DNA of 51,907 nucleotides from a virus (lineage: Duplodnaviria; Caudoviricetes). The notes below the pieces were generated by a model. That model did no database searches and was not told the DNA's origin. It worked only from the letters and a program-made list of their open reading frames with translations. The stretch's first letter is position 1, and each line of letters begins with the position of its first letter. A program made the position numbers and the translations under genes. Shown here piece by piece: positions 1 to 51,907 of this stretch. Location: positions 1 through 51,907 of the IMG/VR virus record IMGVR_UViG_3300029319_000077. One strand, written 5' to 3'.

Positions 1-13
1 CATTTTTGGAAAA
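1..13. repeat. Terminal overlap, left copy (circular junction)
   Basis: catttttggaaaa (1-13) matches cattttttgaaaa (51895-51907) at 12/13; the difference is synonymous (TCC/TCA Ser) in csgG. Confidence 0.8.
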
Positions 14-160
14 ACATTGAGCCTTACCAACAATGGTTACGAGATCTTTGTAATCTCGGTCCGGGTTAGTTAAGCAAGGTGAAATATATTTCCAGTGCGC
101 TGCACAACTAGCCAAACCCAAAATCGCCAATAGGAATAGTAATTGTCGTAGTTGTATCAT
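1..160 (-). CDS. csgG: Curli secretion lipoprotein CsgG, 5' part (continues across the circular junction into the segment ending at 51212)
   Basis: Hand translation from ATG at 160: MIQLRQLLFLLAILGLASC-AAHWKYISPCLTNPDRDYKDLVTIVGKAQCFSKN. Lipoprotein signal peptide with lipobox LASC. The frame is open to base 1 and joins the FSKNAF frame at the window end. Confidence 0.85.
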   Translation of the reverse strand, partial: MIQLRQLLFLLAILGLASCAAHWKYISPCLTNPDRDYKDLVTIVGKAQCFSKN

Positions 161-566
161 CTAAGCTGTTATAAATTTCTAAAGTTATTGTAGACCCGTC
201 TGAGGTCCAGGTTATTATATTATCAAATAAAGTAAAAGAACCTTCCGTTGCTGGGTTTTCTCCAAACAATTGTTCTACTATTTGTCTGCTTATTTGAGCA
301 AAAATGCGCGACTCAAGGTTTTTAGTAAATCTACTTATAACAGAATTTTCTTCATCTCTTTTTCTTTGTTCTTCCAAGGCCCGAAGATCTGCAAGAAGTT
401 GTTCTTTCCGGGTGAACTCTTGGTTCTCAATAGTCATATAATGCGCGGATGTTCCAATACCGCTAAAACTAGGAGACTTAAATTGAAATTTTATTTCATC
501 TGCTTGTAAATTATTTACACAAAAAAGTGTAATTAGTAAGGTCCAATTAATCTTTTCGTTGGTCAT
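108..566 (-). CDS. csgF: Curli assembly protein CsgF-like
   Basis: Signal peptide, then DEIKFQFKSPSFSG resembling the CsgF N-terminal FxNPxFGG motif, plus FTKNLESRIFAQIS and a C-terminal TTITIP. Overlaps the csgG start. Start placed at ATG 566; the ORF track uses 584. Confidence 0.8.
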   Translation of the reverse strand: MTNEKINWTLLITLFCVNNLQADEIKFQFKSPSFSGIGTSAHYMTIENQEFTRKEQLLADLRALEEQRKRDEENSVISRFTKNLESRIFAQISRQIVEQLFGENPATEGSFTLFDNIITWTSDGSTITLEIYNSLDDTTTTITIPIGDFGFG

Positions 567-897
567 CTCTTTCTGCTTTTGCAATTTTATTAGTATCTAT
601 TAAATTTGGAACACCTAACATTGTTTTTAACAATGTGTCTTGTCTTATTATTTCGTTGTCGACAGATCTAACCCGATCTATAAGAGCAACTAAAATACTA
701 TGTTGAGCCGCAATCTTAGATTGCAAACGTTCTTCCATTGCATCTATTTTAGCATTAATTGACTCATCGGTTGTTGAGATAGCGGTTTCTATACCACCCA
801 TAATTTTATTAAGTAATTTATTAAGCAACCAACCCAACCCAATAAGGCCAGTTACAGGCACCCCAACCTCATTTATAAGCTGTATAACTGTTTCCAT
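547..897 (-). CDS. Membrane-anchored coiled-coil protein heading the curli cassette
   Basis: N-terminal hydrophobic helix (VGVPVTGLIGLGWLL) followed by a coiled coil; overlaps the csgF start by 20 nt. Confidence 0.6.
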   Translation of the reverse strand: METVIQLINEVGVPVTGLIGLGWLLNKLLNKIMGGIETAISTTDESINAKIDAMEERLQSKIAAQHSILVALIDRVRSVDNEIIRQDTLLKTMLGVPNLIDTNKIAKAERDDQRKD

Positions 898-46260: not shown

Positions 46261-46557
46261 TTATTTGCCGTAAAGACCTTTGCCTTTGTTTTTAGATGGG
46301 CTCATGCTAAAACCAAATTTAAGAGCTTTTTTAGACATAGCTCCGCCGCTCATCATTTTTTTGACGCCAGCTCTACCGCCGCCCATCATTTTCTTCACAC
46401 CTGATCTGCCTCCTGGAACACCGCCAGCGTTCATTTTCTTCATGCCTGATCTACCGCCAGCAGCCATTTTCTTCATACCTGATCTTCCGCCAGGCATACC
46501 ACCAGCAGCCATTTTCTTCATACCAGCTCTACCGCCTTTTTTGTTTTTTTGTTTCAT
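46261..46557 (-). CDS. Basic G/K/M-repeat protein (candidate core/DNA-condensing protein)
   Basis: Five KKMxxGG units; start set at ATG 46557 after a GGAGG RBS. Confidence 0.65.
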   Translation of the reverse strand: MKQKNKKGGRAGMKKMAAGGMPGGRSGMKKMAAGGRSGMKKMNAGGVPGGRSGVKKMMGGGRAGVKKMMSGGAMSKKALKFGFSMSPSKNKGKGLYGK

Positions 46558-47092
46558 TTTGTAAATGCCTCCGTTTTTCAACAAATTCGTAAAAAGTTTC
46601 TTTATCCCAATATTTATAATAGCCTTTTTCTTCTAACTCTTTTGAAGCAATATTGAGCTTATCAAGAGCTTGAATAAAAACCATCAAATATGGTTCATCA
46701 TAAATAGGTTCAAAGTCACTATCTACTATAGTTCCCTTGCTATCATGCTCAATGTGAAAACCCATGGCCCATAAATTTTGTCTGACCAAAAAATGATTGA
46801 GAACCTGAATTCTAGCATCAAAAACTTCACAAGAAGTTTCAAGGTTAAAATCACAATAAATTAAAACATCATTCTTTTTGAAATCTGTTTGATATATGTG
46901 ATCAACCAGGTCATCCCAATCTTCTTCACATCCGCTTTCTATTATAACTCTTTTTTGTTGCCAGGCTTTTTTTGCATAAGGACATACGGGCAAACCGTTG
47001 CAAAGTAAGGTTTTTTTCTCTATTACAGCTTTGGACCAAGCTCTTAATTCGCGGTTTAGTTCTTGTTGTTTTAATATCTTTACATACTTCAC
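46529..47092 (-). CDS. DUF1415-like protein
   Basis: W...V, CPYAK, GFH and PY.M motifs. Confidence 0.5.
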   Translation of the reverse strand: MKYVKILKQQELNRELRAWSKAVIEKKTLLCNGLPVCPYAKKAWQQKRVIIESGCEEDWDDLVDHIYQTDFKKNDVLIYCDFNLETSCEVFDARIQVLNHFLVRQNLWAMGFHIEHDSKGTIVDSDFEPIYDEPYLMVFIQALDKLNIASKELEEKGYYKYWDKETFYEFVEKRRHLQNETKKQKRR

Positions 47093-47352
47093 TTTGATGT
47101 AAAGGTCTTTACATTAGTTGGTTTTCCACCAACACCTTGTTTCACTGACCTCTTTCTCCTTACTGCTGATTTTATCTGAGATTTGGTCATTCTGCTAGCT
47201 TTAGCAGCAGGCACACATTTTGGATAGCCTCTTTTTGATTTTTTTGCACCAGGTCTTCCGCATTTTTTAAAGCCGCCACCTTTTTTTGGAGCCGATATAT
47301 CAACCCAATTTTCATTAAACCATTTAGTAAGGCCACCTTTGGTTTTGGCCAT
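47089..47352 (-). CDS. Small basic conserved phage protein
   Basis: GLTKWFNENWVDI, CGR and YPKCVP motifs. Confidence 0.65.
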   Translation of the reverse strand: MAKTKGGLTKWFNENWVDISAPKKGGGFKKCGRPGAKKSKRGYPKCVPAAKASRMTKSQIKSAVRRKRSVKQGVGGKPTNVKTFTSK

Positions 47353-47696
47353 TATGAAATCCTTGTTTTTTTCCTTTTAGAATTAAGCATAGATCCGCAA
47401 CCTCTACCCTGAACCATTACAGCGCCACCATTTTTCATGTAGCCCATTTTGTTTCTGACTCTTGTCGGAAGCTTGCTAAGACCTTTATTTCCTTTAGGAA
47501 TTGGCTTTAAATTTTTTTTCACGGCTCCTCCGCTTGCTTTTGAACCCTTGTATTTACCACCCATTTTTTTGTATTCCTTAACCATGTAAGCGTTTGCATA
47601 AGCTGATGGGTAAACATCAAACTTTGCTTTTGCTTTACTTTTTGCTTTTTTATACAAACTTGGGTTTGCAACATTTTTTGGTATATTATCTGCCAT
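47352..47696 (-). CDS. Small basic conserved phage protein
   Basis: KFDVYPSAYAN and YK..GG.YK motifs; carries KASGGAV and MKNGGAV. Confidence 0.65.
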   Translation of the reverse strand: MADNIPKNVANPSLYKKAKSKAKAKFDVYPSAYANAYMVKEYKKMGGKYKGSKASGGAVKKNLKPIPKGNKGLSKLPTRVRNKMGYMKNGGAVMVQGRGCGSMLNSKRKKTRIS

Positions 47697-47707
47697 AATT
47701 TATTTTA

Positions 47708-49459
47708 TCACTTTTTTACTGTCCATATTTCTACAAGTTCCTTTATACCCTTCATTGATATAGGTTGCAACTTTATTAAAGGCATGTTTGTTGCTTGTGC
47801 GGTGTTTTTAGCTATTACTATATTTTTGCCAACATCCTTGCAACTACTTTCGCATCTTGCAGCAAGATTAACGTCTGAGCCAATAGCAGTATAATCAAAA
47901 CGTGTATCGCTTCCCATATTACCTATTATCGCTTCTCCTGAGTTTATGCCTATACCTATCTCTATCCCTAGATCGGCTTTCTCCATATCTTCCTGTATTT
48001 TTAATGCTGCTGCTATGGCTCTATTCTCATGTTCAGGCAAATCTATAGGTGCCGAAAAAATTCCCATGCAGGCATCTCCAATAAATTTATCAATCATGCC
48101 GCCATTTTGCTGTATAGCATTTACTTGGATCGTTAATGCCTTGTTCATAATCTTAGTGACTTCTTCAGGCTCTAGTCTTTCTGACAAGGATGTAAAACCA
48201 CGCACATCGGTAAATAGAAAGGTGCAATACTTTCTCTCACCACCTAGTTTCAAAAGTTCAGGATTATCTTGTAATTGTTTGACTTGTCTTGGATCAAGGT
48301 AATGTTCAAACTGTTTTTTGATCTCTCGACGTAATTTATATTGTTTTTGGAAGTTTATATAGTATGCAATGGTCGAAACTAGTATTTCAGATACAAAAGT
48401 CCATGAAAAATCCAATAAAATACCTTTTTGAACGCTAAAAGCTCCTGAGAGGCCCGTGGTGAAGAGCAAAATTGCAACGAGACCTAAACCCTTCCCTATG
48501 CTAAGAAAATTGATTGTGAGCCAAACTGAAGCGACAAAAATTCCCAAAATCAATAATTCTGCCAATAAATGCCAATCAGGTATGTATGGGCTGTCTGCTA
48601 TTAAAATTGACTCAGCTAAAGCCGCTTGTATTTTATGTGCCTCTAACAATCCGACCGGAGTTGCAACTTTTGGATATACTCCTTTTGCTGTTACGCCTAC
48701 AAAAACAAATTTATCCTGGACATTCATTTCGCTTAAAGTTGTTTGTGGTGTATCGACCCAGCTAATCCATTTGCGGCCATAACTATCTGTTTTAACTGGA
48801 GGTATTCCTCTTATTGATATTTCTGATATACCATTATCATTAGTTTTTATAATATAAGTTTGCACACCAAATATAGCTTTATATACTTGTGTGCCAAAAC
48901 TTGGAACCCAGCCATCAGGCGTTTTATATAACAAAGGGATTTGTCTCAGTAAGCTATCGACATCAACAGGAGCTGACACAACACCCTGTTCAGTTGACGC
49001 AGCAATTTTTGGTATGTTTGGAAGGTGTCCTTGTAAATTTATGCCTGGAACATCTTTACCTAAAACCACTGTTCCTGTTGGTGTTGGATATTCCTGGTTT
49101 GCATATTCAAAGGTAGCAACAACGGCCGGCGGGTTGTTTTTAAGAATTGTCGCAAACTTATCATCACCGCCAAACCTATCTTCATCTACAAAACTTAATA
49201 CCCAACCTACGCCTATTGCTCCATTTTGCAAAAGTTGTTCATGTATTTCTGCTAGCCTGTTTCGCGGCAAGGGCCAACCGCCTTCAGATTGTATAAGCTC
49301 TTCTGTTAAATTTAAAACAACAAAATTTCCTGAGGGCGCTGGTTGTTCTATTAAGTAGTCAAATATTTTTAGTTTTAAAACCTGTAAAGGAAAAATTTGT
49401 AAAACAAGCGGTATGGCTAAACAAACATAAAGTAAAAAAGGCAGCGCAAATTTTTTCAC
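47708..49459 (-). CDS. CHASE2-domain membrane class III adenylate cyclase
   Basis: N-terminal TM; periplasmic GGWPLPR, DRFGGD and DVDSLLRQIPL; three TMs; catalytic FTDVRGFT, DKFIGD and YTAIGSDVNLAAR (Lys/Thr pair indicates ATP specificity). Confidence 0.92.
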   Translation of the reverse strand: MKKFALPFLLYVCLAIPLVLQIFPLQVLKLKIFDYLIEQPAPSGNFVVLNLTEELIQSEGGWPLPRNRLAEIHEQLLQNGAIGVGWVLSFVDEDRFGGDDKFATILKNNPPAVVATFEYANQEYPTPTGTVVLGKDVPGINLQGHLPNIPKIAASTEQGVVSAPVDVDSLLRQIPLLYKTPDGWVPSFGTQVYKAIFGVQTYIIKTNDNGISEISIRGIPPVKTDSYGRKWISWVDTPQTTLSEMNVQDKFVFVGVTAKGVYPKVATPVGLLEAHKIQAALAESILIADSPYIPDWHLLAELLILGIFVASVWLTINFLSIGKGLGLVAILLFTTGLSGAFSVQKGILLDFSWTFVSEILVSTIAYYINFQKQYKLRREIKKQFEHYLDPRQVKQLQDNPELLKLGGERKYCTFLFTDVRGFTSLSERLEPEEVTKIMNKALTIQVNAIQQNGGMIDKFIGDACMGIFSAPIDLPEHENRAIAAALKIQEDMEKADLGIEIGIGINSGEAIIGNMGSDTRFDYTAIGSDVNLAARCESSCKDVGKNIVIAKNTAQATNMPLIKLQPISMKGIKELVEIWTVKK

Positions 49460-50553
49460 GAGCCTTGTTTAATTGTTATTGTTGAAGAGGATCCGGAGTT
49501 AATTTGAATTATTTTAGAGACACCATCTTGTATAAAAATTACAGTGTACGCTCCATCGCCATCAACATTTACCTCAGCATAGTGTTGTACATTTCTTATA
49601 AGTTTTACATTGCCTCCTTGTAGTATGGTGGTTATCTGCGTGTCTAAGTCTTGACCCAGTTGCGTCCCCGTTATGTTTATAGATCCTACCATTTGAGATA
49701 ATTCGTCTTGTTCTTCTTGACTGTCAAGAGCGTCAATAGCATCTAACAAGTCTTCGAGAAAATCGCTTGCTAATAAATCAATGTCAAGCTCAGAAAAATT
49801 TATTGACTCGTCTTCAGCAAGTAAATCCTCATCTAAAAAATCAACTTCAAGATCTGCAAAATCAAGATAATTATTTTGTTGTTGTATTTGTTGCTCCTGA
49901 ACTTCTTCTATTTTTTTTGGTGGAGATACAATGAGCATGTTATCTATAAAGTCCAGGGTCAAATCTAACGTAACTGGTTTTGACGGGTTTTGCTCATAAA
50001 CCGTTGTTGTGGTTGCCTGATAAGGTTTATTAAGAACCACTTGACCAGTTGCGGTGGACACAACAATTTCTCCACTAGCTTTACCATCAAGACCTGGTAA
50101 AAGTATTATAAGACTGGCCCCAGTTTCTTCGACAACCGTGCAAGTAAAATCGGTTCCTCTTATAGCTATATCAGCGGTTGGTGTTTTTAAAGATATATTT
50201 TCTTTGTCAAGTTTGTTTATATTGCCGCTTACAAAACGAATAGTCCCGCTAGCAAACTTAAGAGCCATTTTACTCTTTGTTGGGTTTGGGTCGTATATAT
50301 ATTCATCTATAAGCAATTGTGAATTTTCGGTTAATCTAACTATAGACTCGTCCAAAAATGTTATTGCTATTCGACCTTTTCTTGTTCTTACATCATCGTA
50401 AGAATTTATGTCAAAATCTAAAACAGCCGGATACGGTTGATCTCTTAAGATTTGACCGTATCCTTTAAGCTCTGTAATGTCGCCTATATTGTCAGCATGA
50501 AGTGGTAGTACCACCATCATTTTGCACAATACAAATCGTAGAATTGCTCGCAT
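49456..50553 (-). CDS. Secreted/periplasmic FecR-domain protein
   Basis: Signal peptide; D.VRT..G...I.F.D.S...L.ENS and TPTADIAIRGTDF motifs; acidic C-terminal half. Confidence 0.85.
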   Translation of the reverse strand: MRAILRFVLCKMMVVLPLHADNIGDITELKGYGQILRDQPYPAVLDFDINSYDDVRTRKGRIAITFLDESIVRLTENSQLLIDEYIYDPNPTKSKMALKFASGTIRFVSGNINKLDKENISLKTPTADIAIRGTDFTCTVVEETGASLIILLPGLDGKASGEIVVSTATGQVVLNKPYQATTTTVYEQNPSKPVTLDLTLDFIDNMLIVSPPKKIEEVQEQQIQQQNNYLDFADLEVDFLDEDLLAEDESINFSELDIDLLASDFLEDLLDAIDALDSQEEQDELSQMVGSINITGTQLGQDLDTQITTILQGGNVKLIRNVQHYAEVNVDGDGAYTVIFIQDGVSKIIQINSGSSSTITIKQGS

Positions 50554-51211
50554 TTGTTGTAAGTGATAACCAATCTTTTGCTAGTGTTGAAGATTGTGTT
50601 ATATCAATAGTGTTTGAGCTACCATCTAAATCCAAATTAAAATAACCTGAGTCGCTTGAGGTTGTGCCTGCGTATCCGCTACCTGCAAAATTGATAGTGT
50701 TGCTATCACCGAAAATATCTAATATATTTGTAGCATTTTCATAATCAATATCAAAATTTAATGTATTGCTGTCACCATCAATAATCCAGTCAAGATCTAA
50801 ATAGGAAGCATTGTTTGCTTCAGCTATTTCAATATCAAAAGTGTTAAGTCCTCCAGTGACTTCTATATCTAGGTCAGCATAATCTGCTGCATAAACATCA
50901 TTGCTATTTAGTAAAATATCAAAAGTGTTACCGTCACCTTGAAAATCAAACAATCCATTTATGTAATCTGAATTGATACCGTCTGATCTAAAAATATTAT
51001 TAGAACCTATTTGGTTTATTTCGAGCGTCATGTTTAATCCGTCAAGCGAAAGAGCAGTCATTGTGTTTGATACAGCTGAAGTCCCTCCAATTAAGTTTGA
51101 CGATCCGAGCTGTTCTAAATTTATAGTCGCGTTAGATCCACTTTGATCTACATATATTTCGTTATCAGCTACAGCTGAAAGCGATAAAAAAGTTAAAAGT
51201 AATTTTTTCAA
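50492..51211 (-). CDS. Curlin-like repeat protein (CsgA/CsgB-like)
   Basis: Signal peptide and about eight [Q/x]xGxxN beta-solenoid repeats (QLGSSN, QIGSNN, FQGDGN, IDGDSN, IFGDSN, LDGSSN); directly after csgG. Confidence 0.7.
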   Translation of the reverse strand: MKKLLLTFLSLSAVADNEIYVDQSGSNATINLEQLGSSNLIGGTSAVSNTMTALSLDGLNMTLEINQIGSNNIFRSDGINSDYINGLFDFQGDGNTFDILLNSNDVYAADYADLDIEVTGGLNTFDIEIAEANNASYLDLDWIIDGDSNTLNFDIDYENATNILDIFGDSNTINFAGSGYAGTTSSDSGYFNLDLDGSSNTIDITQSSTLAKDWLSLTTNASNSTICIVQNDGGTTTSC

Positions 51212-51907
51212 TTATTCCTCCGTAAATTCCCAAAAACCTTTTTTTTGTCCTTGGTAAATAATATCAACCACCGCAGTTTCTATGGCTGCTTGTAAAGCTA
51301 TAGATTTACTTTCATTCATTACATTTCCACTTTCAAGCTCTACGAGCTGAGTTGAGTCTGCAACAAACCTAAAAAAATCATTAGATAAGCCAACTGATAA
51401 AATGGTTTTACTAGAGAGATTTTCCATTAAAATTTCTCCAGTGCTTACAGATACTATTCTAACAGAAATAGTAACAGAGTCCTCTCGGTATTGTTTTGAG
51501 TTGCCAATCCCTAACGTCCTGGCTCCCAAACCGCCGCTGAGAAGATTTGTATTATAGTCGACGACACCGCCTTCGAAAATAAGGCCAGCAAACAGTAGTG
51601 GCATTTGTTCAGTAGACTCATTAAATTTTTCTCGTGTAGATCTTATTATTTGTCTTTCACGAGTAACATGATCTATGCCACCTCTTTCAACAACTCTAAA
51701 AAATTTGCTTTGCTTAATAGCTCTAATCAAATAAGTTTCGGGAGCTTGTGTTATTGCTGTTGAAAAAGAAGCTACGTTATCTGCGCTTTTTCTTTGTCCT
51801 GTAAGATCGCCAAATTTATAAACAGCGACAACAGGCTTTTGTTTTGCAGTGGGTACATTTTTAATTGCTGAAGTAACCGGCTCGTTTATAAAAGCATTTT
51901 TTGAAAA
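51212..51907 (-). CDS. csgG: Curli secretion lipoprotein CsgG, 3' part
   Basis: Frame open to the window end: VAVYKFGDLTGQRK, FSTAITQ, FRVVER.G, RERQIIR, GG.GAR.LGIG, QYRED.VT and VSTGEI motifs. The joined gene is 280 aa. Confidence 0.9.
   Translation of the reverse strand, partial: FSKNAFINEPVTSAIKNVPTAKQKPVVAVYKFGDLTGQRKSADNVASFSTAITQAPETYLIRAIKQSKFFRVVERGGIDHVTRERQIIRSTREKFNESTEQMPLLFAGLIFEGGVVDYNTNLLSGGLGARTLGIGNSKQYREDSVTISVRIVSVSTGEILMENLSSKTILSVGLSNDFFRFVADSTQLVELESGNVMNESKSIALQAAIETAVVDIIYQGQKKGFWEFTEE
51895..51907. repeat. Terminal overlap, right copy
   Basis: 12/13 match to bases 1-13. Confidence 0.8.

Follow-up and report, generated by a model that had tools for sequence, protein, structure and literature searches.

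A pelagiphage curli-type gene block with a FecR-fold protein and a CHASE2 adenylate cyclase as a candidate secretion-coupled envelope sensor

In E. coli, curli are encoded by csgBAC and csgDEFG, which include the CsgG lipoprotein pore, CsgF and a secreted repeat subunit. A viral counterpart, a type VIII secretion system (T8SS) region, was described in 2022 from nine HTVC023P-type podoviruses and from pelagimyophages, in which the genes are ordered as 'HK' (histidine kinase), CsgF, CsgG, CsgA/B, FecR, an optional second CsgA/B and adenylate cyclase (AC) (Wittmers et al. 2022, PMC9599517). Passages of the same paper report the block from SAR11/OM43 myophages as well, argue for an alphaproteobacterial origin and for transfer between phage families, place viral curli proteins at each of the 65 GOV2.0 stations that were analysed, with expression in metatranscriptomes, and give FecR, HK and AC as absent from bacterial T8SS operons. 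Here we analyse one copy of this block in a stretch of viral DNA of 51,907 bases (IMG/VR record IMGVR_UViG_3300029319_000077, positions 1 to 51,907, hereafter the window). We give an even chance to the reading that the block encodes a secretion-coupled sensor of the cell envelope, the output of which, cyclic AMP (cAMP), acts on the host.

The copy in the window agrees with the region in the passages of Wittmers et al. in phage type, in genes and their order and in having no CsgE, and its single curlin-like gene is a variant published there. It is nearly certain that the block is the published pelagiphage viral curli, or type VIII secretion, block with its partner genes, and not a new one; an earlier note on this DNA, made from the sequence alone, had missed this 2022 description for the phage type, in which FecR and cyclase were included (PMC9599517). 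The CHASE2 domain is not mentioned in that paper (0 occurrences). The T4-like myoviruses HTVC008M (KC465899, 7562-13807) and Methylophilales phage Melnitz (MZ577097, 50731-56876) hold genes for CsgF, CsgG, a curlin-like protein, a FecR-domain protein and the cyclase that follow one another as in the window, the proteins being 30-44% identical, but have a second curlin-repeat gene between FecR and cyclase and two tandem small upstream genes. As compared to E. coli curli, the phage is without CsgE, its subunit is far more acidic and scores below the Curlin_rpt cut-off, and FecR and cyclase lie outside the bacterial operons. A signalling parallel is known from S. meliloti, where, as described in parts of PMC7529298 and PMC13001267, CHASE2 cyclases of the inner membrane are activated by an external signal only with the help of an outer-membrane-associated protein (NsrA/CyaK, CyaD1/D2). 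The requirement of CHASE2 cyclases, CyaK included, for outer-membrane NsrA is experimental (in the part concerned of PMC7529298); in contrast to the phage block, NsrA is a beta-barrel protein and not CsgG, and the cAMP reader, Clr, is known.

We propose that lipoprotein CsgG and CsgF would build an outer-membrane channel in the infected cell and export the curlin-like beta-solenoid, which is very acidic. A sensor pair would be formed by the FecR-fold protein, after its export by Sec, and the CHASE2 domain in the periplasm; this pair was probably inherited jointly from alphaproteobacterial operons, where it would stand alongside secretion of FecR-bearing, adhesin-like repeat proteins. This pair may turn an envelope cue, tied to export or to the surface protein, into cAMP synthesis from ATP. 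Because no cAMP-binding protein can be recognised in the phage, and the block lacks its own promoter region, cAMP would act on host targets, without feedback on block transcription. In this chain we infer the contact between FecR protein and CHASE2, the coupling to the pore, the identity of the cue and the cAMP reader.

Gene layout and linkage of the block among phages

The block is an intact copy of six co-oriented, overlapping or abutting genes that runs across both window ends. Its parts, in window coordinates and in gene order, are as follows.

547..897, minus strand: small upstream protein of 116 amino acids; an open reading frame (ORF) with no Pfam family, phrog_18771; first gene of the block
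108..566, minus strand: CsgF with signal peptide (ATG at 566, ORF open from TTG at 584); Pfam CsgF 5.4e-17, phrog_35372
1..160 (160-2), minus strand: N-terminal part of CsgG, with signal peptide and L-A-S-C lipobox; continues at the other window end
51212..51907, minus strand: main part of CsgG, 231 codons; Pfam CsgG 4e-45, phrog_20175
50492..51211, minus strand: curlin-like secreted beta-solenoid, from family alignment, model and structural match; no Pfam match above cut-off
49456..50553, minus strand: exported FecR-fold protein; Pfam FecR 4.8e-12, phrog_37870 over the full length
47708..49459, minus strand: receptor adenylate cyclase with a transmembrane (TM) segment, CHASE2, a TM bundle and a class III cyclase domain; Pfam CHASE2 1.6e-28, Guanylate_cyc 3e-17

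All six genes were found on the minus strand, at the positions given in the earlier note, and its reading of a CsgG lipobox (L-A-S-C, in the N-terminal part) and of parts covering surface, outer membrane, periplasm, inner membrane and cytoplasm was borne out as well. By coordinates, the overlaps are 38 or 20 nucleotides between the small gene and CsgF, 53 between CsgF and CsgG, 0 between CsgG and the curlin-like gene, 62 between the curlin-like and FecR genes and 4 between FecR and cyclase. The block shares its orientation with the late virion genes; no terminator-like sites were found on the coding strand inside it, and promoter-like sites within it occurred at the level of shuffled sequence. 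The N-terminal part of CsgG ends in FSKN and the C-terminal part starts with FSKN, giving a 4-residue overlap at the window junction. Since the two parts are collinear and in one frame, with exactly this 4-residue overlap, in 56 of the 81 related loci that hold both, we read CsgG as a single intact gene of ~280 codons lying across the permuted end.

Relatives were collected with the window CsgG (best 80 of 196 relatives), the window cyclase (53 loci) and two divergent CsgGs (78 new and 80 loci) as seeds. The presence of the downstream genes in CsgG-seeded loci with enough downstream DNA was as follows.

Window CsgG as seed, 47 loci: curlin-like 47, FecR 47, cyclase 47
L108 CsgG as seed, 46 loci: curlin-like 45, FecR 46, cyclase 46
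HTVC008M CsgG as seed, 16 loci: curlin-like 16, FecR 16, cyclase 15

In total, the FecR gene was present in 109/109 and the cyclase in 108/109 of these loci, which are the nearest relatives of three seeds and are not dereplicated, and order as well as adjacency were kept across three clades and two phage families. When the cyclase was the seed, CsgG and FecR were found in all ten loci with at least 5 kb of upstream DNA. Every match to the block lay on one strand and in one order. Among HTVC023P-like contigs the block occupies at least five different backbone positions, and since it adjoins at least five different backbone genes, it moves as a unit. The copy studied here has a single curlin-like gene; many relatives have two (30 of 46 L108-seeded and 14 of 16 HTVC008M-seeded loci), the second, where present, being located between the FecR gene and the cyclase.

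The cyclase has a history that is partly its own. In L035, L056-L058 and L067-L082, CsgG is 64-72% identical to that of the window and the cyclase only 31-35% (72% versus 33% for the L035 type), whereas in L084-L087 CsgG is 57-59% and the cyclase 65-68% identical (58% versus 68% for the L084 type). Judged from these identities, the cyclase has been swapped between lineages for a distant homologue, with the same architecture retained. Such discordance between phage clades, together with the separation of the two halves in bacteria (described below), would be expected if cyclase and FecR protein were unlinked cargo, that is, a host-takeover effector raising cAMP irrespective of the curli genes, the halves having merely been acquired together. 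We consider this improbable, as order and adjacency are kept in 108 of the 109 informative loci, over three clades and two phage families, and many copies hold a second curlin-like gene between the FecR gene and the cyclase.

The export genes and the small upstream protein

The family alignment of the curlin-like protein showed an invariant G and N every ~25 residues (a periodic GxxN) and an invariant last Cys, and the mature chain in the window has 33 acidic and 2 basic residues. Pfam Curlin_rpt was matched at E<=1 by 12 of the 15 family members, at 0.017 by the window member, which scored 15.5 bits against a cut-off of 20.7. The protein was modelled as an all-beta solenoid (predicted local distance difference test, pLDDT, 79). 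Foldseek with this model gave no match at E<=0.001. The best match in the VIA structural search was Pontibacter CsgA (8c50_A; Z 16.8, 196 residues aligned, 20% identity, root-mean-square deviation 8.8), with unrelated beta-helices scoring nearly as high.

The earlier note had set a sensor against a biofilm-fibre machine; that opposition did not hold, since the curlin-like solenoid matches CsgA best (Z 16.8) and export and sensing are thus not alternatives. A machine for fibres, with regulators, is how Wittmers et al. interpret the block in the passages concerned: curli-like fibres would form on infected SAR11 cells, for aggregation ('sibling capture'), as a superinfection shield or for promotion of recombination, and FecR and cyclase would only regulate secretion. 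The signal peptide of the curlin-like protein, its periodic GxxN, its solenoid model with CsgA as best match and the intact CsgF and CsgG are all in keeping with fibres. The regulatory part is less easily accommodated, as neither a cAMP-responsive regulator nor an extracytoplasmic function (ECF) sigma factor, through which cAMP could control the csg genes, was found in the phage, and the block leaves no intergenic promoter space. Moreover, cultures infected with Melnitz are described without clumping in the relevant part of PMC9004378, and the window protein is extremely acidic and below the Pfam cut-off. We regard this explanation as possible but rather unlikely.

CsgG matched the solved structures of E. 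coli CsgG at 2.6e-39 over 212 residues. CsgF adjoins CsgG in 72/72 viral loci, on its upstream side, and in 7/7 bacterial loci; it had no match in the PDB by sequence at E<=1, and its identity comes from Pfam and PHROGs. A search of the phage genome for CsgE (PF10627) returned nothing at E<=1. The earlier note had listed several genes as absent, and of these CsgE, Sigma70_r2 and cNMP_binding were indeed not found at E<=1, while CsgC and CsgD were not searched for.

The 116-residue upstream protein, which we read as bitopic, consists of a moderately hydrophobic N-terminal helix followed by a coiled coil. A tblastn search placed homologues of it 5' of CsgF in 53 of 69 loci, and hidden Markov models (HMMs) found them in the myovirus clades in one or two tandem copies. 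The two 93-residue 'hypothetical proteins' upstream of csgF in HTVC008M (L317:6850-7415) are tandem homologues of it, and the same holds for other myovirus loci; therefore the small upstream gene is a member of the block in all clades. Its Atlas clusters contain viral proteins only, without a family, and a profile search of the PDB gave coiled-coil noise only. The label of histidine kinase in Wittmers et al. 2022 was not reproduced: the protein has no Pfam family, HisKA and HATPase_c were found nowhere in the phage genome at E<=1, and in 4 of 9 homologues its sole His is either replaced by Y or N or missing.

The small protein also bears on a proposal of Buchholz et al. 2022, made in the part concerned of PMC9004378, in which CsgG/CsgF form a gated secretin or a pinholin-like channel for the timing of lysis and the other genes modulate its opening. 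Atlas gave leads from the 116-residue protein to releasin and holin families, all of them <0.9 and below the level that the tool treats as meaningful. The missing CsgE gate and the co-orientation of the block with late genes would suit such a pore, but a channel in the outer membrane leaves the inner membrane polarised, and the conserved secreted solenoid and the receptor cyclase would have no place in the scheme. The chance that we assign to lysis timing is small.

The FecR-fold protein, the CHASE2 cyclase and their bacterial relatives

The FecR protein is composed of a signal peptide, a FecR domain (~21-175), an acidic linker and a small C-terminal beta domain. Residues 216-290 of the linker include 26 acidic and 0 basic residues, and G133-T134 is invariant in the family alignment. 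The model was confident for residues 21-140 and of low confidence for the C-terminal beta domain. In Foldseek, the top matches of the FecR domain were the periplasmic anti-sigma domains 4m0h and PupR 6ovk. A cell-surface-signalling anti-sigma factor was nevertheless rejected as its identity, as the signal peptide runs straight into the FecR domain with no anti-sigma domain, and only the periplasmic fold is common to both; Sigma70_r2 gave nothing at E<=1 in the phage genome. Curlin-like strands at the FecR C-terminus were considered but not supported, as hhalign of the FecR against the curlin-like alignment gave a probability of 1%. A search for longer FecR forms returned one Gallionella protein and zero viral fusions, which is weak evidence by the standard of the tool.

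The cyclase has hydrophobic stretches at residues 1-32 and 296-343, which flank CHASE2 (~residues 24-296). With class III receptor cyclases that carry CHASE2, the phage enzyme shares the extracytoplasmic CHASE2 domain between TM segments and the C-terminal cyclase domain. Class III enzymes use two metal-binding Asp residues, a purine-specifying Lys with Thr/Asp, and transition-state Asn and Arg. In the phage enzyme D418, R420, K458, D462, D522, N531 and R535 are invariant in 10/10 viral homologues, with T/S at 524, and the intact catalytic motifs claimed in the earlier note were thereby confirmed. For the phage enzyme, the best solved relatives are 6fht and 2w01, and K458 corresponds in the alignment to the Lys of an adenylate cyclase construct, the parent enzyme of which has Glu. 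The membrane enzyme is thus predicted from its sequence to make cAMP. No cNMP_binding domain was found in the phage genome at E<=1, in agreement with the statement of the earlier note that the phage has no cAMP reader of its own. Models of Pycsar PycC matched at 4.9e-28, which we read as common class III ancestry; a Pycsar system was rejected, the genome having no cNMP-binding gene and the specificity residues being of the purine type. Complex prediction for CHASE2 (24-296) with the mature FecR protein (21-365) returned 0.00 in both runs, a 'no answer' of the tool that counts neither way.

Bacterial relatives of the cyclase were examined in the best 80 of at least 600 genomic relatives, mostly from Alphaproteobacteria and at 25-33% identity. 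A FecR ORF was present in 29 of the 69 loci with at least 1.5 kb of upstream DNA, and was directly upstream on the same strand in 10 of the 69. Five of the bacterial FecR partners are 1,227-2,026 residues long with cadherin-like and Big_9 domains, three of them with RTX repeats in addition; three other partners are short FecR proteins. An adjacent pair of ATP-binding cassette (ABC) transporter and HlyD genes was found in 19/80 cyclase loci, including 13 of the 20 best-scoring ones, with the HlyD gene directly 5' of the cyclase in 10 and a FecR gene too in 8. Thus, the order in L141 is FecR-cadherin protein, ABC transporter, HlyD, cyclase. At L184:6026-20919 the CHASE2 cyclase is accompanied by a C39-ABC transporter, by an HlyD that bears a cNMP-binding domain at its N-terminus, by another HlyD/ABC pair and by a FecR-RTX protein, and L137:6775-17176 holds a type I secretion cluster plus a TolC-like OEP. 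The L184 and L137 clusters suggest cAMP-gated secretion of a FecR-bearing surface protein.

Genes for cNMP-binding proteins, Crp-type or other, occurred in 10/80 cyclase loci. Crp-type regulators (cNMP_binding with HTH_Crp_2) stand beside CHASE2 cyclases at L199:13006-13737, L146:13000-13764 and L170:12350-13177, and in other bacterial cyclase loci the cNMP-binding domain is fused to a SpoIIE phosphatase, a rhodanese or an MscS-type channel. Within this set (best 80 of at least 600), the alphaproteobacterial operons L141, L146, L199, L201, L184 and L137 encode the cellular cyclases most closely related to the phage enzyme. These operons resemble the phage block in that a FecR-domain protein is exported, a secretion machine spans the envelope and a CHASE2 cyclase is present, often with all three encoded in a single operon. 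They differ in that the machine is of type I and not type VIII, FecR is fused to cadherin, Big or RTX repeats, and csg genes are absent. A Burkholderia operon with a FecR/LysM protein and a CHASE2 kinase has been reported (PMC5192318), and our literature search found no paper tying CHASE2 to type I secretion or to curli. In bacteria, FecR and CHASE2 form an old pair, probably sensory, which goes with the secretion of surface repeat proteins.

The bacterial FecR partners also bear on a further explanation, the import of small molecules. In this case an ungated CsgG pore would admit cofactors or iron complexes, and the FecR protein would sense these, as put forward in passages of PMC9599517; that no CsgE was found would fit an ungated pore. 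We judge it very improbable: the FecR domain comes without an anti-sigma part or a TonB-dependent partner, no ECF sigma factor was found, and the nearest bacterial FecR relatives are fused to adhesin-like repeats and do not belong to iron systems.

The csg genes of bacteria were approached from CsgG. In 401 sampled alphaproteobacterial genomes, CsgG was matched at E<=1e-10 in 11 and was close in 7 (37-46% identity); around the 7 close CsgGs, CsgF was adjacent in 7/7 and curlin-like repeats were found in 3/7. One genome had both halves, with CsgG and cyclase ~150 kb apart. The earlier note had named independent assortment of the csg and the FecR/cyclase genes as the observation that would speak against its idea, and the outcome was divided, the halves being apart in bacteria and together in phages (108/109 with cyclase). 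Its wider idea of a trans-envelope sensor is plausible by analogy and was partly supported, in that the block travels as a unit in phages, FecR and CHASE2 are paired in bacteria and NsrA/CyaK provides a precedent; any physical link of pore, FecR protein and CHASE2 is putative.

Several findings weigh against the secretion-coupled sensor that we favour, besides the undereplicated sampling of the phage loci. With HMMs built from the viral proteins, 0/80 bacterial loci had CsgG, CsgF, the curlin-like or the small protein at a distance of up to 10 kb from the cyclase, and FecR or cyclase was found around 0/7 of the close bacterial csgFG loci, two of these stretches stopping at contig ends. Since the halves were never together in the sampled bacteria, a coupling of pore and sensor would be deduced from phage synteny alone. 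The choice of substrate is a weak point too, as K458 and Thr/Ser524 are what we take, from the general class III rules and the alignment, to be the ATP-specificity residues of the phage cyclase. Furthermore, an HTVC008M-type locus (L385:6841-16789) has two small genes, CsgF, CsgG, the curlin-like gene and FecR, but the 6 kb downstream of FecR contain no cyclase. All the other 108 informative loci have the cyclase, and podovirus copies without cyclase are mentioned in passages of PMC9599517 as well. Because such copies exist, the FecR protein can work without cyclase output.

The phage genome and the possible role of the block in infection

The record is classed as linear in IMG/VR and, by CheckV, its 51,907 bases are 98% complete. 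It encodes a large terminase, portal, major head protein, tail-fibre protein and primase-helicase. The terminase is closest to those of phage 023Pt_psg01 (64% identity), Pelagibacter phage HTVC027P (59%) and HTVC023P (57%), and on this ground we assign the window to the HTVC023P-type podoviruses; SAR11 is presumably the host, as deduced from the phage type. Window positions 51895-51907 repeat 1-13 with one mismatch, synonymous in CsgG, and this 13-base repeat probably reflects overlapping ends in the assembly of a genome that is circularly permuted and comes from a mixed population. A blastn search of the block region against the phage collection gave zero matches, and relatives were recovered by protein searches only. 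No public RNA runs were listed with the window stretch; six marine-metagenome DNA runs in three studies contain it, and two of these studies may be where it came from.

Beyond the cyclase, two neighbouring small basic genes at window 47089-47696 match the two halves of Pfam DUF5872 (profile 3-51 and 51-103), both slightly below the cut-off, and the family is apparently split into two genes here. Directly downstream of the neighbours of the block, window 46261-46584 encodes a very basic protein of 107 residues with repeated G-G-R/P-x-G-M/V-K-K-M units.

For the secretion-coupled sensor, one can imagine a particular cue, although we think it unlikely in this specific form: the acidic solenoid and the acidic FecR protein might catch something from outside, e.g. 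basic proteins from lysing neighbours or from a superinfecting phage, and the CHASE2 cyclase might report it as cAMP, retiming or reprogramming the infection. A parallel for a basic protein as cue is the basic uL2 signal of NsrA/CyaK. If true, infected cells of the most abundant marine bacteria would be equipped by the phage with a sense of lysis or superinfection. The ancestral FecR-CHASE2 pair and the absence of a phage cAMP reader narrow the focus to the output of the cyclase in relation to the export genes, and to a reader on the host side. If the wider reading is true, FecR surface protein, secretion machine and CHASE2 cyclase would be a general class of secretion-coupled cAMP sensors, with type I machines in bacteria and type VIII machines in phages. 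The block makes up several percent of the genome in very abundant ocean phages and supplies SAR11 cells with functions that their own genomes lack, and its function bears on the surface of infected cells, on aggregation and carbon export, and on competition among phages.

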